Source: a virus (Duplodnaviria > Heunggongvirae > Uroviricota > Caudoviricetes). Taken from it: a stretch of DNA of 11,394 nt. The translations under genes were made by a program, and so were the position numbers. The notes under the pieces were generated by a model. That model had not been told where the DNA came from and made no database searches. It worked only from the letters and a program-made list of their open reading frames with translations. Below, piece after piece: positions 1,195 through 1,235 of the stretch. Positions within the stretch are counted from its first letter, which is position 1. Each line of letters begins with the position of its first letter. The stretch is from the IMG/VR virus record IMGVR_UViG_2663763232_000009, one strand, 5' to 3'.

Positions 1195-1229
1195 CTCGTA
1201 GAATCGGTTAACACACCAGATTCTACGAG
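1195..1229 (+). promoter_or_regulatory. Perfect 11-bp inverted repeat (CTCGTAGAATC / GATTCTACGAG, 13-nt spacer) overlapping the ribosome-binding site of the first tail-operon gene; candidate operator or translational-control hairpin
   Basis: Read directly: 1195-1205 CTCGTAGAATC, spacer GGTTAACACACCA, 1219-1229 GATTCTACGAG. The right arm overlaps the GAGG Shine-Dalgarno at 1228-1231, 4 nt before ATG 1236. Function is inferred. Confidence 0.4.
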
Positions 1230-1235
1230 GTTTCA

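Follow-up and report, generated by a model that had tools for sequence, protein, structure and literature searches.

The window examined here, a whole stretch of 11,394 nucleotides (IMG/VR record IMGVR_UViG_2663763232_000009), comes from a P1-type phage-plasmid and is 97.5% identical to P1. It begins inside an IS1 end (1 to ∼57), which points in the same direction as the following gene, simC (214–1026, plus strand; taken from the list of open reading frames and named by transfer of the P1 annotation at 97.5% identity). After simC there is an intrinsic terminator on the same strand (1059–1082), AAAACGCCC-ATTAAA-GGGCGTTTT and then a T-run. Further along is a mosaic junction (1184–1185), where homology to P7-type and other relatives starts and upstream of which the cargo genes differ among relatives. 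The junction lies 2 nt before the −22 box of a late promoter, LPsit, whose operon has the gene order pmgC-tub-pmgB-sit-pmgA-bplA-16. The first of these genes, pmgC (1236–1802, plus strand), has its ATG at 1236, and the Shine-Dalgarno (SD) sequence GAGG (1227–1230, plus strand, read from the sequence) stands 5 nt before it, across the spacer TTTCA (1231–1235). The pmgC product is an essential virion protein (CRISPRi essentiality, PMC10695390), predicted to be a tail adaptor or to act in head-tail joining (PMC9024508).

A perfect 11-bp inverted repeat lies between the −22 box and the pmgC start codon, as the original prediction held. Its left (5′) arm, CTCGTAGAATC (1195–1205), and right (3′) arm, GATTCTACGAG (1219–1229), both read on the plus strand, are exact reverse complements of each other and enclose a 13-nt loop, GGTTAACACACCA (1206–1218). 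The right arm ends 3 nt into the SD, and the coordinates likewise confirm the proposed overlap with the GAGG ribosome-binding site of the gene at 1236. The end coordinate first given for the feature, 1235, takes in 6 nt past the right arm; the repeat proper stops at 1229. No other perfect local inverted repeat in the window is as long, and the only other one of at least 9 bp is the intrinsic terminator at 1059–1082. Whole-window shuffles that preserve dinucleotides gave a perfect inverted repeat of at least 11 bp (loop 3–30 nt) in 11 of 300 cases (window-wide p ∼0.04), while an 11-nt complement to the SD segment was present in 4 of 20,000 random 26-nt genome segments (p ∼0.0002). The latter test used the copy in P7, which has the same arms and SD segment as the window.

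LPsit itself, one of the Lpa-dependent late promoters of P1 (others include LPs and LPdar), makes up the left half of the feature. It reads AAATGACTA-CTCG-TAGAAT at 1186–1204 on the plus strand, with the −22 box, an Lpa-binding element, at 1186–1194 and the −10 hexamer TAGAAT at 1199–1204, inside the left arm. The LPsit annotations of P1 (AF234172) and P7 (AF503408), which include this box, fall on homologous, identical sequence. The arrangement fits the late-promoter pattern AAGTnACTT-N4-TAnnnT, has the same element spacing as eight other annotated P7 late promoters, and keeps the box core that is common to late promoters (A at positions 1–2, T at 4 and ACT at 6–8). A consensus scan gave no sigma-70 promoter-like site at LPsit, and there is no −35. 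Judged by its sequence, with a −22 box, a 4-bp spacer, a −10, no −35 and a late operon downstream, LPsit has what would be expected of a P1-type Lpa-dependent late promoter. Host SspA also acts with Lpa at the late promoters of P1. The −22 box, whose role in Lpa-dependent late promoters has been described (PMC10695390), is a 9-bp inverted repeat that binds Lpa, and the 11-bp repeat is a separate, second one downstream of it. It is the 9-bp box, and not the 11-bp repeat, that recurs at late operons; such a hairpin is absent from most other P1/P7 late promoters. The right arm carries a mirrored TAGAAT, and a divergent minus-strand promoter was considered and rejected: there is no −22 box where one would be needed (CATTGAAAC stands there) and no −35, and the scan returned nothing.

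Among the records examined, the only P1 late start annotated is that of Ps, 9 nt after its −10 (M81956). By analogy with this mapped start, LPsit transcription is expected to begin at ∼1210–1213, in the loop and ∼7–9 nt past the −10. Because the left arm holds the −10, late mRNA made from the operon's own promoter should begin in the loop and so be without that arm. The left arm, which is the strand complementary to the SD, would be carried only by transcripts begun upstream of LPsit.

The two kinds of RNA differ greatly in computed stability. The 35-nt RNA of 1195–1229, the subject of the energy calculation proposed earlier, reaches −18.1 kcal/mol (z = −7.0) and has a GGU/ACC mini-helix inside its loop, and none of 200 shuffles was as stable. 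An RNA beginning at 1211 is unstructured (−3.2 kcal/mol, z = +0.2). To open positions −14 to +3, where the SD and AUG lie, takes 17.4 kcal/mol in the long RNA vs 6.1 in the late RNA, and the long-RNA cost was reached in 0 of 200 shuffles of the promoter segment. In these folds, then, the stem is stable and buries the SD, much as had been supposed of an RNA stem that hides the ribosome-binding site. The further suggestion, translational control of the first gene of the operon, could hold only for transcripts that enter from upstream. It does not stand as a general control of pmgC, because the LPsit transcript should begin within the loop, past the left arm. Rfam 15 contains no match over 1195–1229, and its sub-threshold matches are all on the terminator (∼1020–1148).

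The region is matched by 515 plasmids. Across ∼85 loci of the P1 group, 0 of 22 arm positions vary, compared with 10 of 33 other positions (Fisher p = 0.003), and the skew persists when the columns of the −10, SD and ATG are left out (p = 0.014). The loop is variable at 5 of its 13 positions. The −10 and the SD account for part of the arm conservation, and most relatives are >96% identical. The JK004/Salmonella/Enterobacter lineage, ∼25% diverged, has CTCGTAAAATCGG-8 nt-CCGATTTTACGAG. The stem here is kept and lengthened, by a double change from G:C to A:U and two new pairs, and the hairpin energy (−17.8 kcal/mol) is near that of the window. This is the only clear double compensatory event in the homologous hairpin. 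(The same lineage is also named the Cronobacter/Salmonella lineage.) In K. aerogenes a UA to UG change gives a U·G wobble. Overall, the comparison of sequences supports selection for pairing. The hairpin design is not universal: L101 and L103 have weak hairpins only, and in the L106/L107/L120 lineage and in L110 the intergenic region resembles a promoter and contains no significant hairpin. Nine further lineages (L009–L011, L099, L100, L109, L118, L119 and L121, comprising Serratia, Pantoea, Erwinia, E. hormaechei, E. kobei and four uncultured) are uninformative for covariation, as pmgC abuts the upstream ORF and there is neither promoter nor hairpin.

Hairpins of the same design occur with other sequences. 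In the sequencing-run contig L111, which encodes a Pseudocitrobacter-type protein (PmgC 53% identical), the LPsit hairpin is ATGTAACTT-tgca-TACCAT-GGTGCCTTT...AGGAGGCACTATGG. Its sequence is wholly different, yet it is placed in the same way relative to the −10 and SD, and the opening cost is 16.2 vs 4.5 kcal/mol. A 14-bp perfect repeat, CCATAAAATCAGAC/GTCTGATTTTATGG-AG, is found at LPs of JK004, and Salmonella plasmids have an LPs hairpin with a G·U pair. Apart from terminator-like repeats and loxP, the perfect inverted repeats of at least 10 bp in JK004 are its two hairpins, at LPsit and LPs, and one 10-bp repeat in a coding region. In all three unrelated instances the 3′ arm ends on the SD or AUG. 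The purpose of the JK004 LPs hairpin cannot be purely temporal, because the transcripts reaching it from upstream (the LPsit operon) would be late too. At LPdar, complementarity between the promoter core and the SD is marginal (p = 0.03). Extension of the design to LP23 (CTCTTCC/GGAAGAG, p = 0.013) and LPpac (CTTTCGT/ACGAAAG, p = 0.016), where 7 nt of the promoter core are complementary to the SD, was rejected: neither shows a significant SD-opening cost, and their equivalents in JK004 have only shifted 5-bp matches. A Fisher combination of the late-promoter complementarity p-values without LPsit, computed by hand, gives ∼0.08.

A role in DNA rather than RNA had also been predicted, with the dyad as a site for a dimeric regulator. 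A phage or host protein bound there would occlude the LPsit −10 and so repress or time late transcription. A perfect dyad centred on the core promoter, with the −10 in one half-site, is what such an operator would look like, and symmetric double changes of the kind seen in JK004 could equally preserve a symmetric protein site. However, the search for further half-site copies that had been suggested yielded only the two arms, at up to 1 mismatch, in P7 (100 kb), JK004 (94 kb) and the window. The distance between half-site centres shifts from 24 to 23 bp between lineages, with loops of 13 vs 8 nt and differing arm lengths, and the two JK004 hairpins have 12 vs 20 nt between their TAAAATC/GATTTTA cores and unrelated outer arms. 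The U·G or G·U pairs in K. aerogenes, L101 and Salmonella LPs keep the RNA pairing and break the symmetry of the DNA, while the L111 hairpin shares only placement and no sequence. Annotated regulator sites of P1/P7 (C1 operators, Lpa −22 box, LexA, IHF) are neither on the repeat nor like it. With no further half-site in P7, JK004 or the window, variable spacing and wobbles that disturb the dyad, the regulator site is not supported, and an operator is unlikely.

The repeat might instead belong to the upstream genes, as a 3′-end or processing element of cargo transcripts (an exonuclease barrier or a weak terminator) whose overlap with the SD is incidental. In many relatives the upstream gene does stop 30–60 nt before the hairpin, with no other terminator. 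By the usual features of an intrinsic terminator the repeat falls short: 4 of its 11 stem pairs are G:C, no U-tract follows (GTTTCAATG is found instead), and the terminator scan reports 1059–1082 but not this stem. The stem would be too short for RNase III. Moreover, an element of this kind could sit anywhere in the spacer, yet in independent cases it couples the −10 to the SD precisely. This explanation is improbable, and a little more so is one based on DNA structure, in which extrusion of a cruciform or single-strand hairpin would modulate open complex formation at an Lpa/SspA-dependent promoter. Either strand can fold at ∼−11 kcal/mol (z −7 to −8) with the −10 in the stem, but loops of 8–13 nt would disfavour cruciform extrusion. 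Most late promoters are without such a repeat, and it is therefore not needed for Lpa-dependent initiation. The wobbles weaken a DNA hairpin but not an RNA hairpin, and the model offers no reason why, in each of three unrelated hairpins, the 3′ arm finishes at the SD or AUG. Least credible of all is a fortuitous palindrome, seemingly conserved only through the closeness of relatives: the shuffles make the chance of some perfect 11-bp repeat in the window not negligible and most relatives are indeed close, but the skew between arms and loop, the compensatory change in the diverged lineage, the independent hairpins and the rarity of so long a match to the SD all oppose it, and the initial judgement that chance is an unlikely source is upheld by the purifying and compensatory selection on the repeat.

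The reading preferred here, and considered reasonably probable, is that the inverted repeat is a device of the T4 gene e type that stops translation of read-through transcripts. It would act in RNA, and translation of pmgC would be set by which promoter made the mRNA, the 5′ arm being built round the LPsit −10 and the 3′ arm ending in the pmgC SD. Transcripts arriving from upstream genes are probably the only ones to fold the hairpin. Transcripts of same-strand cargo genes (P1 has sim, relatives have lipoprotein or YfjT-like genes) and, in this window, of the IS1 end would carry both arms, form the hairpin at ∼−18 kcal/mol and load no ribosomes on pmgC. Late in infection, activation of LPsit by Lpa would have RNA polymerase start in the loop, giving an mRNA without the 5′ arm and with an open SD that would be translated. 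If pmgC is not translated, Rho-dependent polarity could possibly silence the remaining genes of the operon.

Wherever gene calls or annotation existed, the upstream neighbour was on the same strand, and about half of the contexts have no terminator, the one at 1059–1082 being limited to sim-type contexts. In this window simC is a possible source of read-through. Little of it may reach the hairpin, because the window itself carries that good intrinsic terminator 113 nt upstream. Blocking simA, simB or simC with CRISPRi roadblocks does no harm, whereas pmgC is essential (PMC10695390), and the operon promoter therefore lies downstream of simC. By eye, upstream terminators seem inversely related to hairpin strength: L106, L110 and L120 have a terminator and no hairpin, and P7-type, JK004-type and L111 have a strong hairpin and no terminator. 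The relation is suggestive only, being drawn from small numbers with a scan that missed some terminators, and it was set aside as evidence.

If the mechanism is correct, the recurrence of the design invites a broader, more tentative proposal, one we would put somewhat below an even chance. P1-like phage-plasmids may have repeatedly and independently evolved translational insulators that sense ‘promoter of origin’, with an Lpa-type promoter in the 5′ arm of an SD-hiding hairpin. The cases would be LPsit in the P1/P7 and JK004 lineages, the Pseudocitrobacter-type LPsit, and LPs in JK004 and Salmonella plasmids, with LPdar in P1/P7 as a possible addition. Variable cargo expressed in lysogens (sim, lipoprotein/YfjT-like morons, IS and resistance-gene insertions) could then adjoin structural operons without a terminator and without a leak of virion protein. 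This would amount to a design rule for the mosaic junctions of this plasmid-prophage family, of which no description was found in the literature searched. P1-like phage-plasmids are widespread in Enterobacteriaceae, with variable cargo, including resistance genes, beside structural operons, and the hairpin would explain how cargo can be swapped just upstream of LPsit (junction at 1184) without de-silencing tail genes in lysogens. There is also a practical side, as engineering and complementation work makes use of P1 late-promoter fragments and of pmgC clones (bioRxiv 10.1101/2022.07.24.501295; PMC9024508). If a construct includes 1195–1205 downstream of a foreign promoter, poor translation of pmgC is predicted.

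The literature search, whose reach did not extend to the P1 genome paper (Lobocka et al. 2004), gave no description of the LPsit/pmgC stem-loop. The closest known systems are in T4, where genes e, soc, 49 and I-TevI provide direct experimental precedent for inhibitory hairpins embedded in promoters (PMC3014915). There, long transcripts from upstream promoters have the SD and/or AUG locked in a hairpin, while a late promoter in the DNA of the 5′ strand yields late transcripts free of that strand, and these are translated well; for gene e the effect is ∼100-fold (PMC3014915). P1 has the same geometry: the −10 lies in the 5′ arm, the expected start falls within the loop, and the SD belongs to the 3′ arm. 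The locus also resembles gene e in its stable SD-pairing hairpin, in the late promoter within the 5′ strand, and in the pairing kept through evolution. The machinery differs: LPsit would be read by host sigma-70 RNA polymerase with Lpa and a −22 box, in contrast to gp55/gp33 and TATAAATA in T4. P1 is temperate, and the hairpin would exclude transcripts of lysogens or cargo genes (or early transcripts) rather than early lytic ones alone. The effect of the hairpin was measured in T4; in P1 it is predicted from sequence and computed folds. The device would carry a regulatory trick of the virulent T4 over to a temperate, sigma-70/Lpa-dependent system. A second parallel is the ‘fold-back inhibition’ of IS10 and IS50, which protects the transposase gene from outside transcription, and which was reportedly described by Davis, Simons and Kleckner in 1985 and by Krebs/Schulz and Reznikoff. 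There too, transcripts from outside carry additional 5′ sequence, which base-pairs with the region where translation is initiated, and those from the element's own promoter start downstream of this sequence and are translated; the element and the class of gene are different. On the best reading, the repeat upstream of pmgC is a further case of an already known kind of device, that of T4 gene e.

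Positions 53–11314 of the window are 97.5% identical to the reverse strand of phage P1, and the region around the repeat is identical to that of P1-like plasmids from E. coli and Klebsiella. Gene names are those transferred from the P1 annotation. On the plus strand, simC (214–1026) is followed by an intrinsic terminator (1059–1082, from the terminator and repeat scans) and then by an operon with the order pmgC (1236–1802, 188 codons), tub, pmgB, sit, pmgA, bplA and gene 16, after which come the late promoter LPs (9476–9494) and genes R and S. PmgC is associated with the virion and is essential; its predicted role is that of a tail adaptor or a head-tail joining protein (PMC9024508). 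In sit, the tape-measure/transglycosylase gene, about 30 nt present in the P1 reference are deleted (at 5726–5748), so that the product has 1130 aa, the P7-type length, rather than 1140 aa. At the far end (11314–11394), similarity to the P1 reference ends just past the cixR crossover site, and the invertible C segment either lies in the opposite orientation or has a different Sv allele.

The original prediction of a perfect 11-bp inverted repeat overlapping the ribosome-binding site of pmgC is confirmed by reading the sequence and by an exact check. The left arm, CTCGTAGAATC (1195–1205), and its exact reverse complement, the right arm GATTCTACGAG (1219–1229), enclose a 13-nt loop, GGTTAACACACCA (1206–1218), all on the plus strand; the right arm runs into GAGG (1227–1230), the Shine-Dalgarno (SD) sequence of pmgC, with the ATG 5 nt downstream. 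Apart from it, the terminator after simC is the one perfect local inverted repeat of at least 9 bp in the 11.4-kb window. When the window was shuffled 300 times with dinucleotides preserved, 11 shuffles contained a perfect repeat of at least 11 bp with a loop of 3–30 nt, so the mere presence of the repeat is only slightly improbable. Far less probable is its position: an 11-nt complement to the pmgC SD segment was found in 4 of 20,000 random 26-nt genome segments, a count made with the P7 copy, where the arms and the SD segment are the same as in the window.

In the P1 and P7 records an Lpa-dependent late promoter, LPsit, is annotated at precisely this site, in a stretch where the window and P1 are identical. 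It comprises a −22 box, AAATGACTA (1186–1194), a 4-bp spacer, CTCG (1195–1198), and a −10 hexamer, TAGAAT (1199–1204), all on the plus strand; the layout of box, 4 bp and TAnnnT is common to LPsit and eight other annotated P7 late promoters. By these coordinates, the left arm is the core of LPsit (spacer, −10 and one further base). The 11 late promoters of P1 have a common 9-bp inverted repeat, the Lpa site (PMC10695390), which corresponds to the −22 box and is distinct from the 11-bp repeat. LPsit is already known from annotation; no mention of the hairpin or of its relation to the promoter was found in the literature searched, and earlier notice is possible. Among the P1 records examined, the only annotated late start is that of Ps (M81956), 9 nt past its −10, and by analogy the start of LPsit should lie at about 1210–1213, inside the loop. 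With such a start, the late mRNA would begin near ACACACCAGAUUCUACGAGGUUUCAAUG and be unable to form the stem. CRISPRi roadblocks in simA, simB and simC had no effect on plating, and pmgC is essential (PMC10695390); this is compatible with a separate promoter located downstream of simC and ahead of pmgC.

Folding calculations separate the two kinds of transcript. The hairpin RNA (1195–1229) has an energy of −18.1 kcal/mol (z = −7.0), as anticipated by the original prediction of an RNA stem, and the late RNA (1211–1260) one of −3.2 kcal/mol (z = +0.2). Opening positions −14 to +3 relative to pmgC costs 17.4 kcal/mol in an RNA that begins 90 nt upstream, and none of the shuffled promoter segments (200) gave so high a value; in the late RNA the cost is 6.1 kcal/mol. 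A gap of about 11 kcal/mol should make initiation differ by roughly two orders of magnitude; the hairpin effect for T4 gene e is about 100-fold (PMC3014915). The stem does hide the ribosome-binding site, as originally proposed, but the suggested translational control would not act on the operon's own late mRNA, which is expected to start in the loop. Under the mechanism we propose, transcripts from upstream cargo genes, produced in lysogens or at an early stage of infection, would contain both arms and fold the hairpin, so that pmgC translation would not be initiated on this read-through RNA, while Lpa-activated transcripts would start in the loop and be translated. The 567 nt of untranslated pmgC might then provoke Rho-dependent termination of the read-through RNA, silencing tub, sit and later genes.

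Homology to P7-type, YfjT-type and other relatives sets in at 1184, just 2 nt ahead of the −22 box, and at least five different upstream cargo contexts meet at this mosaic junction (1184–1186). The upstream neighbour is on the same strand wherever gene calls or annotation existed, and in about half of the contexts there is no terminator from its stop codon to LPsit; in P7 this gap is 30 nt. The window has simC and then the terminator, with an IS1 end farther upstream in the same direction. The IS1 copy is inserted in simB, and its right end (1–57), comprising the insB 3′ end and the terminal inverted repeat, reads toward simC and pmgC; P1 homology begins at 53. In Cronobacter phage JK004 (12118–18601), pmgC is immediately preceded, on its own strand, by the gene-23 capsid/sheath operon and two small cargo genes; the block of immI, repL and sim, which in P1 separates the gene-23 operon from pmgC, is lacking.

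About 85 P1-group loci, drawn from phage records, IMG/VR and genomes, form 9 haplotypes across 55 aligned columns and 18 across a wider 63-nt region. None of the 22 arm positions varies, against 10 of the 33 others (Fisher's exact test, p = 0.003; p = 0.014 without the −10, SD and ATG columns); the variable sites are in the −22 box, at 5 of the 13 loop positions and in the SD-to-ATG spacer. A JK004-type lineage (JK004, Salmonella Newport plasmids, an Enterobacter-type contig and IMG/VR contigs; PmgC identity about 76–78%) has CTCGTAAAATCGG-(C/T)TGAAGAT-CCGATTTTACGAG, where both members of a G:C pair within the −10 have changed to give A:U, two pairs are added, the loop shrinks from 13 to 8 nt and the energy, −17.8 kcal/mol, is nearly that of the window. 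The Klebsiella aerogenes copy, CCGATTTTGCGAG, has a U·G wobble. Over the alignment, 95.5% of cells are paired, compared with 29–47% when the 3′ partner is slid by 1–3 columns; the changes are one GC to AU double and one UA to UG, with GC, UA or GU at two inner pairs. Given so little divergence, this comes to a single clean compensatory event. These comparative data are evidence for probable selection on pairing.

The strongest argument lies in the apparently independent instances of the design. In a sequencing-run contig (L111) whose PmgC is 53% identical to that of the window (closest named protein, Pseudocitrobacter), the pmgC leader (1150–1203) reads ATGTAACTT-tgca-TACCAT-GGTGCCTTTgaacAGGAGGCACTATGG, which matches the late-promoter pattern well and has the same spacer and −10 as LPdar, another P1/P7 late promoter. 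Its 13-bp hairpin is unrelated in sequence; the 5′ arm begins where the −10 ends and reaches roughly to the expected start, and the 3′ arm covers SD and AUG. Opening costs 16.2 kcal/mol in the long RNA vs 4.5 in the late one, the long value occurring in 0 of 200 shuffles. In JK004, the tail-fibre promoter LPs, upstream of gene R (3736–3775, minus strand), reads AAGCGACTT-ccca-TAAAAT-CAGACggcagatcttcaGTCTGATTTTATGGAGccccaaATG, and a perfect 14-bp repeat, CCATAAAATCAGAC/GTCTGATTTTATGG, encloses the −10 TAAAAT and ends in the SD (GGAG). It is among the seven perfect inverted repeats of at least 10 bp with 3–20 nt loops in this 94-kb genome, the rest being the LPsit hairpin, loxP, three terminator-like repeats and one of 10 bp within a coding region. 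Transcripts excluded at this LPs would be late ones from LPsit, so the device would not be purely temporal; its general property would be that translation depends on the promoter of origin. LPs of Salmonella P1-like plasmids (L114 and L115, about 160–215) keeps the hairpin, with another loop and a G·U pair opposite TAGAAT; the window's own LPs has no comparable hairpin. LPdar of P1/P7 is a marginal instance: the segment from the −10 to the expected start contains ACCTCCT, which is complementary to the lydA SD AGGAGGG (P7 34322–34369, minus strand; opening 13.0 vs 8.7 kcal/mol, p = 0.03), and the pairing is not kept in JK004. That the design recurs across promoters and lineages of P1-like phage-plasmids apparently reflects convergence.

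Two further relatives (L101, L103) have weak, imperfect hairpins only. In nine more distant lineages pmgC adjoins the preceding ORF, fused into the upstream operon and without a promoter, and in L110 and the L106/L107/L120 lineage a promoter-like intergenic region after a strong terminator has no significant hairpin. L106 and L107, which lack the pmgC-leader hairpin (about 1160–1210), have a short upstream ORF (GGGAGG-ATG, about 9 codons) overlapping the pmgC start, which may represent a different translational coupling or control.

An effect of a DNA cruciform or hairpin on the promoter is possible in principle, with −11 kcal/mol per strand, but explains neither the constant link to the SD nor why most late promoters have no such repeat. 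The original prediction also offered a dyad-symmetric DNA site for a dimeric regulator, which is not supported: a search of P7, JK004 and the window, allowing at most 1 mismatch, gave no further copies of the half-site; arm spacing differs between lineages and between the two JK004 hairpins; the wobble substitutions in K. aerogenes and Salmonella LPs destroy DNA symmetry; and L111 fills the same role with unrelated sequence. Chance, already doubted in the original prediction, is unlikely in view of the 4 in 20,000 segments, the difference in variation between arms and other positions, and the recurrences. Against a terminator or 3′-end element, no U-tract follows the stem; Rfam gave no match to a known RNA family on the repeat.

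The LPsit hairpin is probably best placed in a known kind of regulatory device. It resembles the fold-back inhibition of IS10 and IS50, in which transposase is blocked on transcripts entering from outside. In the T4 gene e, soc, 49 and I-TevI leaders, the initiation region is sequestered in early transcripts, and late mRNA that can be translated comes from a late promoter lying in the DNA that encodes the 5′ strand (PMC3014915). The arrangement here, as read from sequence and computed folding, is like that of these leaders, but the promoter class differs (sigma-70 plus Lpa with a −22 box in P1, gp55/gp33 in T4), and P1-type phages, unlike T4, are temperate, so that the transcripts excluded here would probably come from cargo or lysogenic genes.
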